From contig JAGVEL010000008.1 in assembly GCA_020058285.1 (NCBI GenBank), positions 1-58,109 of the forward strand: a DNA stretch of 58,109 nucleotides, written 5' to 3'. Origin of the DNA: Candidatus Omnitrophota bacterium (GTDB lineage: Bacteria > Omnitrophota > Gorgyraeia > JAHJTE01). Both the position numbers and the translations under genes were made by a program. How positions within the stretch are numbered: the stretch's first letter is position 1; each line of letters starts with the position of its first letter. This document shows, in pieces, positions 1 through 58,109 of this stretch. The notes beneath the pieces were generated by a model. The model worked only from the letters and a program-made list of their open reading frames with translations, was not told where the DNA came from and did no database searches.

Positions 1-428
<428 letters not shown>

Positions 429-4049: not shown

Positions 4050-4078
4050 AGTATACACGCTAAAAGCTGCTTTGTCAA
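4050..4078 (-). promoter_or_regulatory. Sigma70-type promoter for the C25 peptidase gene
   Basis: The minus strand reads TTGACA (4073-4078), a 17-nt spacer, then TATACT (4050-4055), about 85 nt upstream of the ORF start. Confidence 0.5.
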
Positions 4079-4146
4079 GCAAGAACCACCAACTGGTGCT
4101 TGGTTTTTGCTTGATGCCGCAAAAGCTTTTGCGGCGCAAGGAAAGG
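4076..4146. repeat. Single REP-like unit (two hairpins)
   Basis: The sequence is CAAGCAAGAACCACCAACTGGTGCTTGGTTTTTGCTTGATGCCGCAAAAGCTTTTGCGGCGCAAGG. It has the same architecture as the units at 11377-11615 and 32675-32918. Confidence 0.7.
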
Positions 4147-6451: not shown

Positions 6452-6582
6452 AAAAAAATCCTATCCTTCATTTCCAAGGATAGGATTGTACATTTTGCTT
6501 TCGGTAACCAGACTATCCTTTTAAAGAAGGACTCTTGGCTTTGCGCCCTATGCTTACGCATAGTTTGCCCTTATCGAGCATA
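6452..6582 (-). promoter_or_regulatory. c-di-GMP-I (GEMM-I) riboswitch #1 with intrinsic terminator, in the leader of the pilin-fusion operon
   Basis: The minus-strand RNA reads GGGCAAACUAUGC-GUAA-GCAUAGGGCGCAAAGCCAAGAGUCCUU...AAGGAUAGUCUGGUUACCGA. It shows the conserved GGCAAAC / GNRA-capped P1 hairpin / GGRCGCAAAGC / GGUUACCGA blocks of GEMM-I, close to the V. cholerae Vc2 aptamer as I remember it. It is followed by AAUCCUAUCCUU-GGAAAUG-AAGGAUAGGAUU-U7 (6452-6488). Confidence 0.85.
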
Positions 6583-6791: not shown

Positions 6792-8507
6792 ATGAAAAAA
6801 ATTCCTGTTGACAAGAATTTGCTAAAAGTAACCTCGGTCAGCATTATAATCGCTTTGTTCTATTTCTTTTCATTTAGCAACATACCTAGTTTAAGCTTCC
6901 TGCAATTAAAAACCGCAGACTTTTTTAAGCAGCTCACCTATGCCATAAAACCAAAGCCAAACGAGATAAAAGACCTATGCGTGATTAAAATTGATGATGA
7001 ATCATTTATGGCCTTAAATAAAAAGTGGCCTTGGCCGCGCAGTATTATCGCCGAATTCTTAGAAAATTTGAATGAATATAAACCGAAAATTATAAGCTTA
7101 GACTTATCATTTATCGGAGAAAGTGAAAGCGTGGATGCTGATTTAAGGTTAGCTCGGGCAATCAAGAATTGTGGCAATGTAATCTTAAGTGCTTACATTA
7201 CTCCTGATGGCACTTTTAACAAGCCTTTTTTACCTTTAAGAGAAGCAGCTTTAGATTTTGGATTTGTAAATAAACCCCGGGATATAGACCTGATTGTGCG
7301 CCGGGTAAGAGTAATTCTGCCAACAGAAAAAAACCAGGAACAATTTGACTTGTCTTTTGGCCTAAAGAGTGTGTTACATTACTATTCAAACTCAGAAAAA
7401 ATTCATTTGGCTAAAATTAAGAATAATTCCTTTCTGATCAAAAATCTGGGTAATGAAAAAACAAAAAAACTGCTGTTAAGTACGGATAATCAAGGAACCG
7501 CAGCCTTAAATTTCCAGGCAAAAGATAAAGATTTCATTTCTGAATCATTCTATAAAATACTTAACAAAAGCGCGGACGCAAAATTGATTGAAGGCCGGCT
7601 GATAGCTATTGGCGTAACTGCTGAAATATTCCATGATGTCTACCCTACGACCTTAGGGATTCTCTCTGGCGTCAGCTTGAATGCCAATGAGATGTTGATG
7701 TATTTATCCGGAAACTTCCCAAATAAAGTGCCGGATAACTGGCAATTGTTTTTGATTGTTATTGCTGCGCTTTGGTCTTCAATATTAACCTATAAATTTA
7801 AAGTGGTTAAAGGCCTTATAAGCCTTTTAACCCAGCTTGTAATCTTATCGCTACTAGCCCTAGCTGCTTCTTATTTTAATTTTAGATATGATTATTTTGG
7901 CCCGATTTTTATTGCCTGCTTTATTTATGCCGGAACAGAAACTTATAAATATGGCCATTTGATTATTGAAGCTACAATATTAAAGAAGCTTTCGATTACC
8001 GACGGGTTAACCGGCTTGTACTTACACCGCTATCTAATATTAAGGCTGGATCAGGAATTCAAGAAGGCTTACGATGAAAATTCTCAATTATCGCTGTTGA
8101 TTATGGATATTGACCACTTTAAAAGAATTAATGACACCTATGGCCATGAACAAGGAAATGTGGTGTTAAAAAATATCGCCAAAATTATTCAGGATGCAAG
8201 CCGAAAGCTAGATATTGTTGCCCGCTACGGCGGAGAGGAATTCTGCGCAATATTACCCAGCACGAATGAATTAGGTGCAAATATCTATGCCCAGCGTTTA
8301 AGAAAAACGATTGAGGAGTTTAATTTCCCTTATAAGGAAAACCAGCCACTAAAGGTAACGATTAGTATCGGAATTGCCTCGTCAAAACAGACCTTGGCCC
8401 AAAATCCTGCAGAGCTTATCTCATTTGCGGATAAAGCCCTTTACCAGGCAAAAGAAACTGGAAGAAATACGGTATGCACTTTTGTCCCGCCTCCGGAAAA
8501 AATTTAA
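6792..8507 (+). CDS. Membrane diguanylate cyclase: CHASE2 sensor domain, TM segments and a GGDEF domain (active-site GGEEF, intact RxxD I-site)
   Basis: The CHASE2 signature is IKIDDESFMALNKKWPWPRS...LDLSFIGES, followed by 3-4 hydrophobic helices. The GGDEF domain shows DGLTGLYLHRY...MDIDHFKRINDTYGH...RKLDIVARYGGEEFCAILP...KALYQAKETGRN. Confidence 0.88.
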   Translation: MKKIPVDKNLLKVTSVSIIIALFYFFSFSNIPSLSFLQLKTADFFKQLTYAIKPKPNEIKDLCVIKIDDESFMALNKKWPWPRSIIAEFLENLNEYKPKIISLDLSFIGESESVDADLRLARAIKNCGNVILSAYITPDGTFNKPFLPLREAALDFGFVNKPRDIDLIVRRVRVILPTEKNQEQFDLSFGLKSVLHYYSNSEKIHLAKIKNNSFLIKNLGNEKTKKLLLSTDNQGTAALNFQAKDKDFISESFYKILNKSADAKLIEGRLIAIGVTAEIFHDVYPTTLGILSGVSLNANEMLMYLSGNFPNKVPDNWQLFLIVIAALWSSILTYKFKVVKGLISLLTQLVILSLLALAASYFNFRYDYFGPIFIACFIYAGTETYKYGHLIIEATILKKLSITDGLTGLYLHRYLILRLDQEFKKAYDENSQLSLLIMDIDHFKRINDTYGHEQGNVVLKNIAKIIQDASRKLDIVARYGGEEFCAILPSTNELGANIYAQRLRKTIEEFNFPYKENQPLKVTISIGIASSKQTLAQNPAELISFADKALYQAKETGRNTVCTFVPPPEKI

Positions 8508-11292: not shown

Positions 11293-11376
11293 TATCTATC
11301 ACCCCAAAAATTAAATTTTATCCGCCAATCTTTGTGGCGGATAATCCTTATAAAGTATCCTAAATTAAAAGGAAAG

Positions 11377-11615
11377 TCAAGTAAAAACTACCAGCTGGTG
11401 CTTAGTTTTTACGCCGTGCCGCAAAGGCTTTTGCGGCCAAGTAACCATAATTGCCAGCTGGCGCTTTAAATTTCGCTTGTGCCCTGCCTGCCGAAGGCAG
11501 GCGTGAAGGCTTTTGCGTCAAGTAAAAACTACCAACTGGTGTTTAGTTTTTACGCGATGTCCTGCCTGCCGTCAGGCAGGCGTAAAGCTTATCCGACGCA
11601 AGCAAAAACCACCTA
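11377..11615. repeat. Tandem array of 3-4 REP-like two-hairpin units in the plsC-rpsA intergenic region
   Basis: The units are 60-80 bp, each starting with CAAG. Hairpin 1 is GTAAAAACTA-CCAGCTGGTGC-TAGTTTTTAC. Hairpin 2 is either GCCGCAAAGGCTTTTGCGGC or CCTGCCTGCC-NNNN-GGCAGGCG. The last partial unit abuts the plsC stop. Confidence 0.8.
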
Positions 11616-16107: not shown

Positions 16108-17172
16108 CTAAATGATCACAAGGTCGTCGCGGTGGATTATTTCCCGTTCGCCTTTTTTGCCTTTGATATGTACAACATGGCTTGAGGAAAACCTGGTTAT
16201 GCCTTTAGCAAAATTTTTATTGCTTGAATCAGCGATAAATACTACATCGTTTTCCTTAAATTCACCGTGGACATTAACAATTCCTACGCCGAGCAAGCTT
16301 TTATTCTTTGACTTAATTGCGGTCTTTGCCCCATCATCTACGATTATCACACCCTTAGGTCTTGCGCTGTTTGCAATCCAATTTTTACGGGCTAGGCGTT
16401 TATTGCCTGCGCAAAAAAATGTCCCGGGATTTTTTCCTTCCACAATGTCTATTAATATATTATCAGTCCGGCCGTTAGCCAAAACTGCAGGTATGCCGCT
16501 TTCGTTTGCTATCTTTATTGCTTCCAGTTTCGAAAACATACCACCCACGCAGCTAAACTTTGTACTAGTGCAAGCCAAGCTCATAATCTTAGAGTCGATT
16601 TTTTCCACATATTCAATCAGCTGGTTACTTTTTCTATCTTGCAGGCCATCAACATCGGTTAATACAATCAACAAATCACAAGATACTAGCGTGGCAACTA
16701 ACGCGCTTAGTTTATCGTTATCCCCAAATTTTATCTCTTCCATTGAAACCGAATCGTTTTCATTGATAATTGCTACTGTCTGATATTTATATAACTGATT
16801 AATAGTTTTTTTGGCATTTAAAAACCGCTTGCGGCTGGAAAAATCATCCCAGGTTAGTAAAACCTGTGCACAATTCTTTCCAATCTGCTTAAATGCATCC
16901 TGATAAGCCTGCATAAGCGAAATCTGGCCGATAGAAGCCAACGCAGCTAATTCTGATAGGTCAGACGGACGTTTAGATAAATTTAAGGTATCCAGGCCGC
17001 AGCCAATAGCACCGCTAGATACAACAATCACTTGTTTGCCGCAATCCATAAGCACGCCAATCTGGCGTACGATATTGGCGATTAAATCCGCGTCCAAATG
17101 GTTATGCTTATCGGTCAGTATACTTGTGCCAATTTTAACAACTATGCGTTTGAAGTTTACGTCTGATTTCAT
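16108..17172 (-). CDS. proB: Glutamate 5-kinase with C-terminal PUA domain
   Basis: It contains RIVVKIGTSILT, VVSSGAI and ENDSVS, with a PUA-like C-terminus. Confidence 0.92.
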   Translation of the reverse strand: MKSDVNFKRIVVKIGTSILTDKHNHLDADLIANIVRQIGVLMDCGKQVIVVSSGAIGCGLDTLNLSKRPSDLSELAALASIGQISLMQAYQDAFKQIGKNCAQVLLTWDDFSSRKRFLNAKKTINQLYKYQTVAIINENDSVSMEEIKFGDNDKLSALVATLVSCDLLIVLTDVDGLQDRKSNQLIEYVEKIDSKIMSLACTSTKFSCVGGMFSKLEAIKIANESGIPAVLANGRTDNILIDIVEGKNPGTFFCAGNKRLARKNWIANSARPKGVIIVDDGAKTAIKSKNKSLLGVGIVNVHGEFKENDVVFIADSSNKNFAKGITRFSSSHVVHIKGKKGEREIIHRDDLVII

Positions 17173-18106
17173 AAATTAATTCCTCTAAACCCTTTTTTTC
17201 TAAACAAGAAATGGAAATAATCTTTTCACCTAAGGCTTTAGTTAGTTTTTTTAAGTTAGTCTGCCAGCCGGGTAAATCAATTTTATTTGCAACAATTATC
17301 CTGGGTTTTTTTTCTAATCCTGCACTGTAAGATTTAAGCTCAGTATCGATAATCTTAAAATCAGAAACCGGGTCATTTGTCGCCTCTGGGGAAATATCAA
17401 CCAGCTGCAAAACTAATTTTGTCCTTTCAATATGTTTTAAGAACTCTATGCCTAAGCCTTTACCGAGGTGCGCGCCTTCAATCAAACCCGGAATATCAAC
17501 TAAAACGCAAGAAAAATCATCGCAAGCTAGAACTCCCAATATCGGCGCTTTTGTCGTAAATGGATAACTAGCAATCTTCGGGCGGGCATTGGATATCGCA
17601 GTAATTAAGCTAGATTTGCCAGCGTTGGGTTTTCCCACGATTGCCACATCCGCAATCAGTTTTAACTCTAGGCTTACATCTCTCTCTTCGCCAAGTTGGC
17701 CCTTCTCTGACTGGCTATGGGTAATTATATTGCCCTTGCCGCCAAGGCCGCCTTTAGCGGCAATCACTTCTTCGCCGGAATTTTTTAAATCCCTTAAAAT
17801 AAAGCCGGTTTTTATATCACGAATCAAAGTACCGCAAGGAAGCAAAATTTTCAAATCTGCGGCATCCTTGCCCTTTTTGCAGTTAGACCCGCCCCGTTCT
17901 CCATTTTGAGCTTTAAAATGCTGGCGATAGCGAAAATCCAAAAGCGTATGAATCTTAAATTCGGCGCGTAAAATTACATCCCCGCCTTTGCCGCCGCTGC
18001 CGCCGTCAGGAGTGATATGCCTTTTTCTGCGATGATGATAATGACTATTGCAGCCATCGCCGCCATTACCGGCTTTAATACTTATCTTGGCAAAATCAAT
18101 GAACAT
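17135..18106 (-). CDS. obg: GTPase Obg (short form without a long C-terminal extension)
   Basis: It has the Gly-rich Obg fold (FIDFAKISIKAGNGGDGC...GGSGGKGGDV) and the G1 motif GKPNAGKSS. Confidence 0.92.
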   Translation of the reverse strand: MFIDFAKISIKAGNGGDGCNSHYHHRRKRHITPDGGSGGKGGDVILRAEFKIHTLLDFRYRQHFKAQNGERGGSNCKKGKDAADLKILLPCGTLIRDIKTGFILRDLKNSGEEVIAAKGGLGGKGNIITHSQSEKGQLGEERDVSLELKLIADVAIVGKPNAGKSSLITAISNARPKIASYPFTTKAPILGVLACDDFSCVLVDIPGLIEGAHLGKGLGIEFLKHIERTKLVLQLVDISPEATNDPVSDFKIIDTELKSYSAGLEKKPRIIVANKIDLPGWQTNLKKLTKALGEKIISISCLEKKGLEELIYEIRRKLQTHSC

Positions 18107-18130
18107 TTTTAATTTTCTAGGCCTGGAGAG

Positions 18131-18451
18131 TTAACTTGCGCTTATCTCTTTTATCTTTAGGCGAGTAAATTTTTGACGATGGCCCTTTTTCCAATGCCAA
18201 TCCTTCCGACGGTGGTACTTAAAGGCTATTACCTTATCTGCTTTTATTACTGGGCTCAAAACCTCAGCCTTTACAGAAATATTTTTTAAATAAGGCTTAC
18301 CCACCTGCAGGTCTTTTCCATCTGAAAACATCAAAACCTTGTCCAGGGTCACTGTCTTAGCATGCGCGCGTAGATGCAATTTCTCAATGTCAATCTCGCT
18401 ATCTGCCTGTACCCGGTACTGTTTTGAACCACTCTGAATTATTGCGTACAT
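18131..18451 (-). CDS. rplU: 50S ribosomal protein L21
   Basis: It begins MYAIIQSGSKQYRV..., contains KFTRLKI, and is 106 aa. Confidence 0.92.
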   Translation of the reverse strand: MYAIIQSGSKQYRVQADSEIDIEKLHLRAHAKTVTLDKVLMFSDGKDLQVGKPYLKNISVKAEVLSPVIKADKVIAFKYHRRKDWHWKKGHRQKFTRLKIKEISAS

Positions 18452-18555
18452 AGAAATCCTCCTCTAGGGATTAAATTAGATACTTATGTTAACATAACTA
18501 AATTGAACAGGCAAGAAAAAACAATAATCAGTAACATACTTAATCTTTAGAACTC

Positions 18556-19070
18556 AAATCCCCTTTCCTCTCTCGCTTTCGGTGCTTGTTCAAAAACGGG
18601 TCACCCGCTACATTTGCTTCTGGGATATGTTCGCTGTGCTCTAAATCTTTTGCCGTCTGCTGCGGTTTACGTCTCGCTCGTTTGGCGAAATTCCCTTCGG
18701 TCAGTTTCGCCACTCGCTTGCCGTAATTCCTTGCAGACATTTGCCAAAAAATTTCTTATGCACGCTCACAAATCCCACCGCAAATTAATTATTCACGTAC
18801 CTCTCAACATAATGAACCTGGTAATTTTCGAGCGATATGTCGATTTTAGTACTTCGACGCGCCCTTCGGGCTTGCTCAGTACTTGTCCTTTACTACTCCA
18901 AAATGGGTGGCAAGGTTTGATATGAGCAGGACGTAGAGGCGACGAGCGGGCACGGTGTCCGAGCACAAAGTGCGAGGACGAGCGAGGAAGCCGAACCGAG
19001 AGAGCTTTTCCCCGCTGGGGAAAAGCGAGCGTTCCTGCGAATACAAACCTTGACAGGACCCATTTTCCAA
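18556..19070. ncRNA. Unclassified GC-rich, highly self-complementary non-coding element (copy 1); the minus strand is slightly favoured
   Basis: No credible ORF is present. Long-range complementarity links 18900-18932 (AAAAUGGGUGGCAAGGUUUG..GCAGGA) to 19033-19066 (UCCUGC..CAAACCUUG..ACCCAUUUU). On the plus strand, CUCUCUCG..UUCGG (18566-18581) pairs with CCGAA..CGAGAGAG (18991-19005). Local hairpins include GCUUUUCCCC-GCU-GGGGAAAAGC and GUCC-GA-GCAC-AAA-GUGC-GA-GGAC. Positions 18841-18999 are ~98% identical to 57951-58109. Confidence 0.5.
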
Positions 19071-19174
19071 AGGGCATTAAAGAAGAAACAACAGAAAGCG
19101 GGAAAATTGTCAGGGTCATTATAAACAAAAGTTAATTTAGCCAATTTATTTGAGACTACCAATAATCAGCCAAA

Positions 19175-20665
19175 TTATTCGATTATAATCTTCTCTAAGT
19201 GTAAATGCGGACTGGGGTTTAAGATAATCGGGGTTCGAAACCTGGACTGCAGGTCCTTAAGCGTCTGAATGTGTTGCACGTTCAGGAACTCAACAACCTG
19301 AGGATTAAGGCTAACTAAAAGTTTCGGTTTCTTGCGCTCTTTTAACGCCTGGCTAAGCGCCCTCAGACACATAATCGCAACAGTTGCTGTTGACTTTACC
19401 TTACCCTTGCCCAAGCAATAAGGACAAGCCTGGAATGATAAGCCTTCAGCGCTCTTACGCTGGCGTTGGCGAGTCATCTCCAGTATCCCAAAGTCAGAAA
19501 TCCTAATGACTTCTGTCTTGGCCCGGTCAGTCTTAAGTAAATCCTTAAAATGCACTACCAAAGCTTTGCGATTTGAGTCTTTGGACATATCAATAAAATC
19601 TATAACAATTAAACCTCCTAGATCCCTCAAGCGAAGCTGGCGGCTAATCTCATCAGCAGCCTCCATATTGACATTAAATGCCATCTCTTCCTGAGCTCTT
19701 GGCCCGGCAGATGAGATATTGCCTCTATATTTTCCGCTGTTAACATCAATTGCCACAAGCCCCTCCGTAGGTTCAATATAAATATAGCCTCCGGATTTTA
19801 GATTTACCTTTCGCTGATAAAGGGTCTCAATCTTCTCCTCAACCTTAAATTTTTCAAACAATAATTCCTTGCCGTGATAGAAAATAATCTTGCGAAGTAA
19901 ATCCGGAGAATATATTCGCACAAATCTGCGGATAATATAAAATTCCCTTTTTGAATCTACAAAAAGATTAGCAATATCTTCAGTAAATGAATCGCGAACT
20001 ATACGCATGAGTAAATCATATTCTTCATGGACTAACGCCGGTGCTTTTCTTTTCTGCGCCTGGCGATATATAGTTTGCCAAAGCCGGATTAAAAATTTCG
20101 CATCCCGAACTAACTGCTTTTTACCCACGCCAACGCTTACTGTGCGCACAACAAATCCGCTTTCTTTTGGAAAATTAAGGCTATCAATTAAAACTCGCAA
20201 TCTGCGGCGCTCTTCCTCATCATCAATCCGACGCGATATGCCGACACTATGGTCAAAAGGAAGTAAAACTAGATATCTACCCGGCAGGGATATATTTGTA
20301 GTAAGCCTCGGGCCTTTAGTGCCAAATTGCTCTTTAACTACCTGGACAATTAACTCCTGGCCTACTTTCAGGTCTTCGGTCTTAAAGGTACTGGCTGATG
20401 TTGCAATCGCTTCAAGATCATCGCCAGAAAAACTCATTGCCTTGTCCACCTTGCTTAGGTAAAGAAATCCTTTCTTAGGCAAGCCAATATCAACAAATGC
20501 CGCGTTTAAAGACGGAGCTATTGAATCAACCCTGGCTTTATAAATATTTCCGACAATAGTTTTTTCGCTGCCGCGTTCAATAAAAAATTCATCAATCCGG
20601 TCATTATCCAAGATTGCTACGCGATTCTCCAGGTGTCCCGGATTCATTAAAATTAATTTAGGCAT
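19175..20665 (-). CDS. rng: Ribonuclease G/E family endoribonuclease
   Basis: It has an S1 domain (VGNIYKARVDSIAPSLNAAFVDIG), the catalytic core LGGLIVIDFIDM, a Zn-link CPYCLGKG, and is 496 aa. Confidence 0.88.
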   Translation of the reverse strand: MPKLILMNPGHLENRVAILDNDRIDEFFIERGSEKTIVGNIYKARVDSIAPSLNAAFVDIGLPKKGFLYLSKVDKAMSFSGDDLEAIATSASTFKTEDLKVGQELIVQVVKEQFGTKGPRLTTNISLPGRYLVLLPFDHSVGISRRIDDEEERRRLRVLIDSLNFPKESGFVVRTVSVGVGKKQLVRDAKFLIRLWQTIYRQAQKRKAPALVHEEYDLLMRIVRDSFTEDIANLFVDSKREFYIIRRFVRIYSPDLLRKIIFYHGKELLFEKFKVEEKIETLYQRKVNLKSGGYIYIEPTEGLVAIDVNSGKYRGNISSAGPRAQEEMAFNVNMEAADEISRQLRLRDLGGLIVIDFIDMSKDSNRKALVVHFKDLLKTDRAKTEVIRISDFGILEMTRQRQRKSAEGLSFQACPYCLGKGKVKSTATVAIMCLRALSQALKERKKPKLLVSLNPQVVEFLNVQHIQTLKDLQSRFRTPIILNPSPHLHLEKIIIE

Positions 20666-27583: not shown

Positions 27584-27708
27584 CAAAAAAACCTATTTGC
27601 CAGTAGCAAATAGGTTTTTCCCTATCGGCAACTGGCTGTCCCGAAATTCCGGGACCCTTTAGCTTTGCGCCCCATGCTTACGCATGGTTTGCCCTTTTCA
27701 GATAGGCT
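27584..27708 (-). promoter_or_regulatory. c-di-GMP-I (GEMM-I) riboswitch #2 with intrinsic terminator, upstream of the PilX-like gene
   Basis: The minus-strand RNA reads CCUAUCUGAAAAGGGCAAACCAUGC-GUAA-GCAUGGGGCGCAAAGCUAAAGGGUCCCGGAAUUUCGGGACAGCCAGUUGCCGAUAGG. It is followed by AAACCUAUUUGC-UACU-GGCAAAUAGGUUU-U tract (27584-27617). Confidence 0.85.
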
Positions 27709-32671: not shown

Positions 32672-32674
32672 AAT

Positions 32675-32918
32675 AAAGCAAAAATTGCCAGCTGGCGTTT
32701 AATTTTTGCTTATGCCGGCAAAACTTTGCCGGCGCAAGCAGTCAACTATGTTTAGTTTTTGCTTATGCCCTGCCTGCCGCAGGCAGGCTAAAAACTTTGC
32801 GGTACGAGCAAAATTGGCAACTGCCGTATAATTTTGCGAGATGCCATGCCTGCCGCAGCAGGCGTGAAAACTTGTGTGGCCGCAAGGAAAATTACCAACC
32901 GTTGTTTATTTTGATAAT
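32675..32918. repeat. Tandem array of ~4 REP-like two-hairpin units between the pilA terminator and the GT-C genes
   Basis: The units are AAAGCAAAAATTGCCAGCTGGCGTTTAATTTTTGCTTATGCCGGCAAAACTTTGCCGGCG, then CAAGCAGTC...GCCCTGCCTGCCGCAGGCAGGC, then CGAGCAAAATTGGCAACTGCCGTATAATTTTGCGAGATGCCATGCCTGCCGCAGCAGGCG, then a partial unit. Confidence 0.8.
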
Positions 32919-33578: not shown

Positions 33579-33696
33579 AAAAAAACCTATTCCAGTTACC
33601 TGAAATAGGTTGCTCCATTGGTAACTGGCTACCCTTTTTGCAGGGCCCTTTAGTTTTGCGTCCCATGCTTGCGCATGGTTTGCCTTTTTCAATGAT
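33579..33696 (-). promoter_or_regulatory. c-di-GMP-I (GEMM-I) riboswitch #3 with intrinsic terminator, in the pilA leader
   Basis: The minus-strand RNA reads CAUUGAAAAAGGCAAACCAUGC-GCAA-GCAUGGGACGCAAAACUAAAGGGCCCUGCAAAAAGGGUAGCCAGUUACCAAUG. It is followed by AACCUAUUUC-AGGUAACU-GGAAUAGGUU-U7 (33579-33611). Confidence 0.85.
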
Positions 33697-38947: not shown

Positions 38948-40393
38948 TTATGCCTTAACCAAATTTTTGCCGTGCGCCTTTGCCTGATCGAGCATTTCTC
39001 TTGCATGGTCAATTAATTCTCCGCTGGAAACTCCATCAATCGGATTTTCGCTAACTCCACCGCTCATCGTTAATCTCTTATTAACCTCAGTTTCTTCCTT
39101 AAACAAGTATTCTAATTTTTTCCTTATCTCTTCGGCTATTTTTAATGCCTCTTTTTTGTTGCGTTCCGGAAGAACGACTGCAAAATCATTATCGCCAAAC
39201 CGAGCTACCCTATCTATCTCAGTAACGCTATCCTCCAATGTCAGGGCAATCTTTTTAAGAGCAGTTTCACTAGCCAATTCACCAAAAAGCGTATGATATC
39301 GCCTGAAATTATCTACATTAAATAATAAGAACGCACACGGCCGCTGATAAGCAACTGCACGCTTTATCTCTTCGTCCAAACGCGCTTTTATAAATCTTTC
39401 ATTGTAAAGGCCAGTTAATGGGTCTTTCACTTCGAGCTTCTGCACGCGGAAATGCAGAAAGTCTGTTTCCAGAGCAATGGCAATCTGTTTTACAAAAATT
39501 TCCAATATTTCTAAATCATCTGTAGTATAGAAGAAATCTTCTTTGTTGTTGGCAATGCATATTAACCCCAAAGCCTTGCCGCGCACATACAGAGGAATAA
39601 AAATGGCATTACGCATTCCAAAAGACTCCTGCCAATACCGGATATCAGCCGATGATTGCTTATTATTCTTATCTAAAATAAAAACTTCTTTTTTATGGAT
39701 AACATTTCCTAAAAGGCCTTCGCCTAACCTCACTTTTAAATTGCTAATCCGTTCTGACTCTTGACCTCTAAAACATTTTAGGCTTAAAAAATCTGAATCT
39801 TCAGCTTTAGTTAAAAGCAAACCTAATTCAGATTGGCCGACCTGCATAATCTTATCTACGCTTACCTTTAGTATCTCTTCTAATTTTGAGCCTTGGGAAA
39901 TTAAGTTGCCTATTTGTAATAAATTACTCAAAATTACAACCCGCTTGTGAATCTCAGTATTGATATTTTTTGTTTTTTCGCCGTAATTGCTTAATTCTTC
40001 CATAGACTGACGAATTCTTAAGGTTAGCTTATCTAAGGCAGAACTTAAATCGCCGATTTCGTCATCGCGGCCAATGCCTACTTTAATCACGTGATCAAAA
40101 TTTCCTTCGGCAATGTGGCTGGCTTCCCGGCTTATTTTAATTACCGGATCAATAATCCTTTTTAAGATGTAAAATCCTATTGCGGCAATCGCTATCGTAA
40201 TAATCAAAATCGGCAAGATGTTAAATTTAAGCGGCTGCATCTCATTTACCTTAAATGTAAAATTAAACAAGCTGGGAAAAATCATATTCATTAAAATAAG
40301 TATTGGGATAATCGAAGAAAGCACAAAGGCTACCATGAGCTTCACATTCAAGCTACGTGAATTTAAGTTTAATTTATTTGGCTTATTATTCAT
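38948..40393 (-). CDS. Membrane HAMP-GAF-GGDEF protein with a degenerate active site (GDNDF)
   Basis: It has two TM segments, a HAMP domain (ISREASHIAEGNFDH...DEIGDLSSALDKL) and a GAF-like middle. The GGDEF fold shows DPLTGLYNERF, but the A-site is RFGDNDF, the metal site is FNVDNFRRYH, and the I-site position reads TEID. Confidence 0.8.
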   Translation of the reverse strand: MNNKPNKLNLNSRSLNVKLMVAFVLSSIIPILILMNMIFPSLFNFTFKVNEMQPLKFNILPILIITIAIAAIGFYILKRIIDPVIKISREASHIAEGNFDHVIKVGIGRDDEIGDLSSALDKLTLRIRQSMEELSNYGEKTKNINTEIHKRVVILSNLLQIGNLISQGSKLEEILKVSVDKIMQVGQSELGLLLTKAEDSDFLSLKCFRGQESERISNLKVRLGEGLLGNVIHKKEVFILDKNNKQSSADIRYWQESFGMRNAIFIPLYVRGKALGLICIANNKEDFFYTTDDLEILEIFVKQIAIALETDFLHFRVQKLEVKDPLTGLYNERFIKARLDEEIKRAVAYQRPCAFLLFNVDNFRRYHTLFGELASETALKKIALTLEDSVTEIDRVARFGDNDFAVVLPERNKKEALKIAEEIRKKLEYLFKEETEVNKRLTMSGGVSENPIDGVSSGELIDHAREMLDQAKAHGKNLVKA

Positions 40394-57638: not shown

Positions 57639-57715
57639 TTTTATTCTTACCTTAATATTATACTAAGGGTTTAAATTAACATAAAATAAAAAGCGTGTCA
57701 ACGAAAAAGGGGAAC

Positions 57716-58109
57716 TCAACCCCCTTTCCTCTCTCGCTTTCGGTGCTCGCAGCTATTCGTCTCAACTTTTCCTGTATGTCCCCCCATCCCCCACAGGGGG
57801 TTTTTGCAGGGTAGAAGTACACGGAAAAGTCTCACCTCATATGCTTAGCTCCTGCGCTCCGTATGCTCGTTCGGAAACGGTCTTGAGTTTTTTCTAAAAA
57901 ATGAATCTGGCAATTTTCCCTGCCTGCCGGCAGGCAGGGAGCGAAGATCACGATTTTAGTACTTCGACGCGCCCTTCGAGCTTGCTCAGTACTTGTCCTT
58001 AACTACTCCAAAATGGGTGGCAAGGTTTGATATGAGCAGGACATAGAGGCGACGAGCGGGCACGGTGTCCGAGCACAAAGTGCGAGGACGAGCGAGGAAG
58101 CCGAACCGA
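57716..58109. ncRNA. Second, window-truncated copy of the unclassified GC-rich structured element
   Basis: 57721-57747 equals 18560-18586 (CCCCTTTCCTCTCTCGCTTTCGGTGCT). 57951-58109 matches 18841-18999 with 3 mismatches in 159 nt. The middle is divergent and carries an inserted REP hairpin, CCCTGCCTGCCGGCAGGCAGGG, at 57918-57939. Confidence 0.5.

Follow-up and report, generated by a model that had tools for sequence, protein, structure and literature searches.

The window analysed here, a complete contig of 58,109 bp from a Candidatus Omnitrophota bacterium, raises the question of what fills the 723 nt (18452-19174) that separate rng (RNase E/G; 19175-20665, minus strand) from rplU (L21; 18131-18451, minus), the latter being followed by obg (Obg; 17135-18106, minus) and proB (ProB; 16108-17172, minus). 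A first-pass annotation of this DNA had described the gap as a structured, pseudoknot-capable element, to be explained either as a non-coding RNA in its own right or as a structured leader of rplU-obg. As an aside on gene order, obg follows rplU directly (17135-18451) with no rpmA (L27) in between, an arrangement that is also present in the related loci L001-L006.

Coding content and base composition of the rng-rplU gap

The gap contains short ORFs only, all of which lack a Shine-Dalgarno sequence, and no ORF with a detectable relative was found, in agreement with the annotation's view that no credible ORF is present. When a six-frame pseudo-protein of the large fold-back domain described below (domain B) was compared with 5.8 billion proteins, 0 matches were obtained at E<=10. 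A small-protein gene in the gap was rejected, given the missing Shine-Dalgarno sequence and the lack of relatives. The gap had also been described as GC-richer than its surroundings: this is correct for 18800-19100, where the GC content is 0.525-0.535 (about 0.53 against about 0.40), but not for the left half of the gap, which at 0.435-0.465 matches the neighbouring coding DNA.

Two copies with conserved blocks and unrelated middles

The second copy that had been claimed for this element does exist: it lies at 57712-58109 and is ended by the end of the contig. Copy 1 is composed of a 38-nt pyrimidine-rich block GAACTCAAATCCCCTTTCCTCTCTCGCTTTCGGTGCT (module A, 18550-18587), a variable middle (18588-18808) that holds a long imperfect fold-back at about 18611-18785, and a fold-back domain of 314 nt (module B, 18809-19122); the corresponding parts of copy 2 are module A at 57712-57747, the middle at 57748-57896 and an incomplete module B at 57897-58109, inside which the contig ends. 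The outer blocks are almost the same in both copies: module A is identical at 36 of 38 positions, the core of B at 156 of 159 positions (57951-58109 compared with 18841-18999), and the 5' arm of the outer helix P0 (57897-57918 in copy 2) carries 3 substitutions relative to copy 1, corresponding to about 86% identity. The middles, which measure 221 nt in copy 1 and 150 nt in copy 2, are unrelated (global alignment z 0.6), with the similarity between the copies restarting exactly at the base of P0. Folding of the copy 1 middle on the minus strand is well above that of shuffled sequences (z -4.9), while the middle of copy 2 folds at the level of shuffles (z -1.5). Beyond module A, the outer ends of the two copies are again unlike (TAAAGATTAAGTATGTTA versus CCCTTTTTCG). 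Within copy 1, module A is partly complementary to two segments of domain B, 18991-19004 and 19091-19103.

Multiple copies without coding capacity, a property of miniature inverted-repeat elements (MITEs), were thus found in the form of two copies on the contig, one of them at the contig end. The other end of the contig lies inside a 16S rRNA gene (window 1-425, comprising the 5' 424 nt, minus strand), so that both ends are in repeated sequence. Assemblies typically break at repeats, and the placement of copy 2 opposite the 16S gene therefore argues for reading the element as a repeat.

Nested in copy 2 only is a perfect palindrome of 20 nt, CCTGCCTGCCGGCAGGCAGG (57919-57938), which forms part of a separate family of hairpin repeats with units of about 70 nt; members of this family also occur in relatives and at other places in the window. 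Arrays of such two-hairpin repeats, with units of about 70-76 nt, are located at 4074-4112, 11376-11600 and 32673-32900 of the window as well as at 7507-7640 of L001 and 7507-7580 of L002: hairpin 1 has the sequence GCAAAAACTACCAGCTGGTGnTTAGTTTTTGC, whilst hairpin 2 is a variable GC-rich palindrome, for example CCTGCCTGCCGnAGGCAGG. The arrays fill several intergenic gaps and have no Rfam match. The near-identical contigs L001 and L002 differ in the rng-rplU gap by exactly one array unit, which indicates that the arrays are dynamic, and they look like a REP/BIME-like family that is specific to this Omnitrophota lineage.

Folding of domain B

Domain B of copy 1 is closed by the outer helix P0 (18809-18831 with 19100-19122), which extends the set of helices listed in the first-pass annotation. 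Inside P0 lie hairpin H1 (18848-18883), the composite helix P1 (18900-18932 with 19031-19066), a purine-rich core of 71 nt (18933-19003, 72% purine) and hairpin H2 (19004-19026). The composite helix had been noted before and was recovered in three parts, namely 18900-18908/19058-19066, 18908-18919/19044-19055 and 18926-18931/19033-19038. Compared with dinucleotide shuffles, domain B (18809-19122) folds very strongly on both strands, with an MFE of -108.8 kcal/mol (z -6.0) on the minus strand and of -117.3 kcal/mol (z -5.2) on the plus strand; for the whole 531 nt the values are lower, at z -3.2 (minus) and z -3.7 (plus).

The two long-range contacts on which the idea of a pseudoknot had been based are present as complementarity: 18673-18681/18978-18986 for the pairing near 18671-18680 with about 18979-18988, and 18568-18578/18994-19004 for that of 18566-18581 with 18991-19005. 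However, pairing of the purine core with module A or with either middle is no better than that of composition-matched shuffles (z +1.3 to -1.8), and we therefore treat these contacts as an effect of base composition and have dropped the pseudoknot as evidence. The "ornate" secondary structure of the element is the product of its nested inverted-repeat architecture.

Short motifs are iterated within the element: the A-like motif TCTCGCT(nn)TTYGG occurs twice in the otherwise unique middle of copy 1 (18670-18684 and 18705-18724), and the purine core holds two instances of its complement, GACGAGCG (18941-18948 and 18977-18984). On sequence grounds these motifs look like candidate protein-binding sites.

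Promoters, terminator-like sites and strand

Between the element and rplU, and outside the former, lies a stretch of native DNA with a promoter on the minus strand (18486-18514), made up of the -35 hexamer TTGCCT (18514-18509), a 17-nt spacer and the extended -10 element TGT-TAACAT (-10 at 18491-18486). All relatives examined share this promoter, which could be aligned and is conserved in L002, L003, L005, L006 and L015 with the pattern CTTGxxxG-N-TGTTAACAT (also written CTTGxxxG … TGTTAACATA); in the shortest gaps of the relatives it is found about 30-50 nt past the rng stop codon. With the conserved native promoter on its downstream side, the element occupies a spacer that would be very short without it. 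The same observation rules out the suggested structured leader of about 650 nt for rplU-obg: the promoter at 18486-18514, conserved in six relatives, separates the element from rplU, and the relatives do without the element.

The extended -10 region of this promoter (18486-18495) is also a perfect palindrome, ATGTTAACAT / TGTTAACA, in all of the genomes (L002, L003, L005, L006 and L015), and the similar sequence TGTTAA is found ahead of yggS. From its symmetry, the palindrome could be an operator in addition to a promoter element.

A second, weak promoter-like site on the minus strand faces into the element (19118-19144: TTGGCT at 19144-19139, a 15-nt spacer and TATAAT at 19123-19118) and overlaps the 3' arm of P0. 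A minus-strand TATAAT had been reported directly after the rng stop codon: the hexamer is there, but about 50 nt from the stop, and its best -35 partner stands at a spacing of 15 nt, because of which the promoter scan did not report the site. At the outer edge of copy 2 we found a terminator-like hairpin on the minus strand (57700-57724; GGGGGTTGAGTTCCC then CTTTTTCGTT), in which the hairpin (57724-57710) has its 5' arm within module A and is followed by CTTTTTCGTT. Copy 1 is without the 3' arm of this hairpin, and no terminator-like site was found in 18300-19400; with no terminator between rng and copy 1, transcriptional read-through from rng across the element is likely.

The strand evidence, which had already been called weak and conflicting, proved to be just that. 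One of the differences between the copies, G18869A, keeps pairing on the minus strand only (as U.G), whereas the G.U pairs of P0 are possible on the plus strand only; likewise, domain B folds better on the plus strand and the middle of copy 1 on the minus strand. Strong folding of both strands without a consistent preference is as expected of inverted repeats at the DNA level, not of a strand-specific functional RNA.

Searches for related sequences and partner genes

A cmscan search of the whole window against Rfam 15 gave no family at gathering score in either copy, and at E<=10 the two copies returned only spurious miRNA matches (E 3-6). The models for ROOL, GOLLD, OLE, HEARO, raiA, RNase P, tmRNA, SRP and 6S RNA all failed to match either copy at E<=10, and ARAGORN found neither a tmRNA nor a tRNA. 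These negative results uphold two earlier statements, namely that the element fits no known RNA family and that it carries no hallmarks of RNase P, tmRNA, SRP, 6S RNA or group II introns. A group I or group II intron was rejected on further grounds as well: no intron model matched at E<=10, there is no intron-encoded protein, and the contig contains no reverse transcriptase or maturase.

Homologues were equally absent from every collection searched. Exact-word scans of 185,579 species-representative genomes gave 0 matches for GGAAGCCGAACCGAGAGAGC and 1 chance match for CCAAAATGGGTGGCAAGGTT (L008); in the JGI metagenome contigs, GTGGCAAGGTTTGATATGAG gave 1 chance match, which lies inside an ORF of 2093 aa (L007), and three seeds scanned against the IMG/VR viral contigs gave chance matches only (L009-L012). 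No match was obtained with either copy when using blastn (word size 11) against annotated phage and plasmid collections, and a literature search on Omnitrophota repeats or non-coding RNAs brought up nothing relevant.

Across essentially all of the contig's genes, Pfam annotation revealed type IV pilus, cell-shape and division proteins, tRNA synthetases, enzymes of the proline and shikimate pathways, c-di-GMP signalling proteins and a C25 peptidase; reverse transcriptases, transposases, recombinases and RNA-guided nucleases are all absent. A retron was rejected, given that the neighbouring genes are rng, rplU and yggS and that no reverse transcriptase domain is encoded on the contig. The same applies to an invertible promoter segment: the inverted repeat between module A and the core is imperfect, and no recombinase is present.

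Elsewhere on the contig, three c-di-GMP-I-GGC riboswitch aptamers were detected, all on the minus strand (6499-6578, 27623-27702 and 33616-33693; 65-70 bits against a gathering score of 59), upstream of an unannotated protein of 556 aa and of type IV pilus/pseudopilin genes. The contig that carries these aptamers also encodes two GGDEF proteins (6792-8507, plus strand; 38948-40393, minus strand).

Empty sites in relatives and signs of insertion

We compared the rng-rplU locus with those of the closest relatives, L001/L002, L003/L004, L005, L006 and L015, in which Rng is 67-71% identical. Gene order is the same in all of them, but the gap measures 110-534 nt and contains nothing that resembles the element: nhmmer and blastn searches of the element against all loci of relatives analysed (about 190 kb of DNA), together with the rest of the window, matched only the conserved rplU promoter. 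At the site of copy 2, the relative L013 has ftsA, a gap of 55 nt with a promoter, and then yggS-proC-MTAP-ileS, which is the synteny seen downstream of copy 2. Empty orthologous sites, as known for MITEs, are hence found at six rng-rplU loci and one ftsA-yggS locus, a presence/absence contrast that is one between genera (relatives are 59-71% identical in their flanking proteins) and not one within a population.

The flanks of copy 1 share the 10-nt direct repeat CAATAATCAG, at 18522-18531 on the left and at 19160-19169 on the right, the latter 5 nt from the rng stop codon. A 10-nt word common to both flanks arises by chance in 4.4% of shuffles and in 2.6% of control pairs of real sequence, and the left repeat sits 18 nt outside block A. 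With 18532-19169 deleted, the remaining gap of about 85 nt aligns with the gaps of the relatives. We regard the direct repeats as suggestive of a target-site duplication. As for inverted repeats, domain B is bounded by a 23-nt pair that extends to 37 nt at 73% identity, whilst the ends of the whole unit from A to B show only a weak match, TAG(nn)CTCAAAT; the far end of copy 2 lies beyond the contig.

Other GC-rich, structured insertions of 150-450 nt were seen in relatives, in the rng-rplU gap of L005 (2223-2595) and L006 (4385-4918) and upstream of yggS in L014 (255-495). They include motifs of the CTTCGACAAGCTCAG / GAGCGAAGTCGAAGGGC type and are mutually unrelated, and some are placed downstream of the rplU promoter, in the 5' UTR. 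An Rfam search of the gaps of the relatives gave no match. With their unrelated insertions, these spacers stand out as hot spots of insertion in the lineage.

Nature of the element

Taken together, these observations make a small, non-autonomous mobile element the most likely identity, ahead of a conserved regulatory RNA. With moderate confidence, we read it as a young, lineage-specific, non-coding and modular intergenic repeat of the MITE/BOX/BIME kind, with a length of about 570-630 bp. This reading follows from the non-coding and multi-copy nature of the element, its nested inverted repeats, the empty orthologous sites, the possible flanking duplication, the probably passive transcription and a location that tolerates insertions, past a stop codon and ahead of the following promoter. 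Also in its favour are the discrete block boundaries, with A and the B core near-identical and the middles unrelated, the presence in this genome of other small palindromic repeats, one of which is nested in copy 2, and the different insertions that occupy the rng-rplU gap in different relatives. Such a repeat would consist of three parts, the end block A of 38 nt, a middle that can be exchanged and the 314-nt fold-back B with its 23-nt inverted repeat at the base, and it would have inserted at least twice in this genome in the same orientation, in both instances into a short spacer between co-directional housekeeping operons and just upstream of the promoter of the next operon. An enzyme whose gene lies at another place in the genome would presumably mobilise it in trans. 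Since no terminator separates rng from the element, the minus strand is probably transcribed passively through read-through from the upstream gene; as RNA, the stable fold-back together with the terminal hairpin and U-run of copy 2 could then act as a 3'-end stabiliser or as a terminator between operons.

With MITEs such as the Neisseria Correia elements, the element shares a non-coding sequence of a few hundred bp, several copies, an intergenic location and a fold-back formed from inverted repeats, in addition to its lack at the orthologous sites of relatives and the possible target-site duplication; like them it is likely co-transcribed with neighbouring genes, and like them it can supply promoter-like or terminator-like signals. 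It differs in that inverted repeats at the termini of the full unit are weak, the clear 23-nt inverted repeat being confined to the base of B, in that its two copies have different outer ends, and in that the conserved block does not directly abut the candidate 10-bp duplication; moreover, no parent insertion sequence is known. Pneumococcal BOX elements and enterobacterial BIMEs are alike in being modular, with conserved end modules, a variable middle and partly complementary ends, in lying between co-directional genes, in harbouring smaller nested palindromic units and in their unclear mode of spreading. Here the element departs in size (B alone spans 314 nt) and in its middle, which is unrelated sequence and not a variable number of one box; no sequence similarity to these families is known, the comparison being one of general properties.

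Several observations speak against reading the element as a modular repeat: the contig holds one complete and one partial copy only, the differing outer ends and the left direct repeat 18 nt from the conserved block are unlike a simple MITE with terminal inverted repeats and target-site duplication, and neither an autonomous partner or transposase on the contig nor a related element in any collection searched was found. The pairing of G18869A on the minus strand alone and the plausible minus-strand terminator of copy 2 are further points on this side, and selection on a functional RNA could also explain near-identical A and B core blocks beside an unrelated middle. As the fit to a MITE is imperfect with regard to the differing outer ends and the exchangeable middle, we retain a novel modular non-coding RNA and an ORF-less derivative of a larger element as alternatives.

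The better of these, although in our view unlikely, is a novel minus-strand gene with two or more paralogues, whose product, a large structured non-coding RNA of about 560 nt, would have a trans-acting role such as that of a guide or scaffold to a protein with its gene elsewhere. In such an RNA, B would be the conserved 5' domain, the middle a hairpin domain particular to each paralogue, and A the conserved 3' block, which would end in an intrinsic terminator; this would account for the very strong folding of B (z -6.0), the discrete conserved blocks around a variable domain, the impossibility of assigning an Rfam family and the change G18869A, which is compensatory on the minus strand only. 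The signals that could delimit such a gene are incomplete: upstream of copy 1 stands the promoter-like TTGGCT-15-TATAAT, but its spacer is 15 nt and the start predicted from it would remove part of P0, and a terminator-like hairpin ends copy 2 on the same strand, but copy 1 lacks one. B also folds better on the opposite strand, with the G.U pairs of P0 available on plus only, and the tertiary contacts are not above the composition-matched null. With no homologue in the collections searched, covariation lends no support, and neither does the distribution of the element, which is absent at the orthologous sites of all relatives examined, nor the contig, on which there is no gene for a partner protein. 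Ornate non-coding RNAs such as OLE, ROOL, GOLLD, HEARO and raiA resemble the element in their size of 300-600 nt, their dense multi-helix fold, their GC enrichment relative to an AT-rich genome and the lack of an ORF; the element, however, has no covariance-model match at E<=10, no detectable phylogenetic conservation and no conserved synteny, and its copies are near-identical instead of diverged.

Less probable still is descent from a larger mobile element by loss of its ORF. The middle would then mark the place of the lost ORF, and B would be the parent's structured non-coding RNA or its recombination end, by analogy with the non-coding ends of IS110 (bridge RNA) and IS200/IS605 (omega RNA, subterminal hairpins). 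Conserved ends around an unrelated middle, as in deletion derivatives, and a structured domain of about 300 nt at one end would suit this idea, as would termini that are not clean inverted repeats with a target-site duplication, given that some families make no duplication. HEARO and every other Rfam model were nevertheless silent at E<=10, and we detected neither a remnant of a TnpB, IscB or IS110-like ORF in the six-frame translation nor such a gene on the contig, nor an autonomous relative in the phage, plasmid, viral, genome and metagenome searches.

We give a similarly low probability to the idea that B, middle and A together form a modular RNA (about 560 nt) of a new class, which would travel on a mobile unit and work with a partner protein encoded elsewhere, for instance as a programmable guide or template RNA. 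Its parts would be the ornate conserved scaffold B, a swappable cassette of 150-220 nt and the conserved 3' block with a terminator. The msr-msd RNA of retrons offers a partial parallel, as it too has a conserved structured part and a long hairpin that varies, along with a distal block able to pair with one further upstream (a1/a2-like). Here, in contrast, there is no reverse transcriptase beside either copy or on the contig, the a1-like block lies inside helix P1 and not at the 5' end, and the pairing of A with the core does not exceed the composition null.

Finally, it is very improbable that the element serves the downstream operons in cis, as a structured 5' leader or riboswitch: both copies do lie upstream of, and co-oriented with, operons that include genes of proline biosynthesis (proB/proA at copy 1, proC at copy 2), and no terminator intervenes between copy 1 and rplU, but native conserved promoters are located downstream of the element, relatives have the same operons without it, the terminator-like hairpin of copy 2 stands just ahead of the yggS promoter, and the shared link to proline is probably coincidental, since the gene orders obg-proBA and yggS-proC are conserved widely.

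Should the element prove to be a modular RNA whose cassette can be swapped, a new kind of RNA architecture would have come to light in a phylum that is uncultured and host-dependent. For a mosaic repeat, the reading we favour, the value of the finding is mainly one of annotation: in Omnitrophota MAGs, intergenic blocks that are GC-rich and highly structured can be young, assembly-breaking insertions and not conserved RNAs, and the rng-rplU spacer would be a hot spot for such insertions in this lineage.
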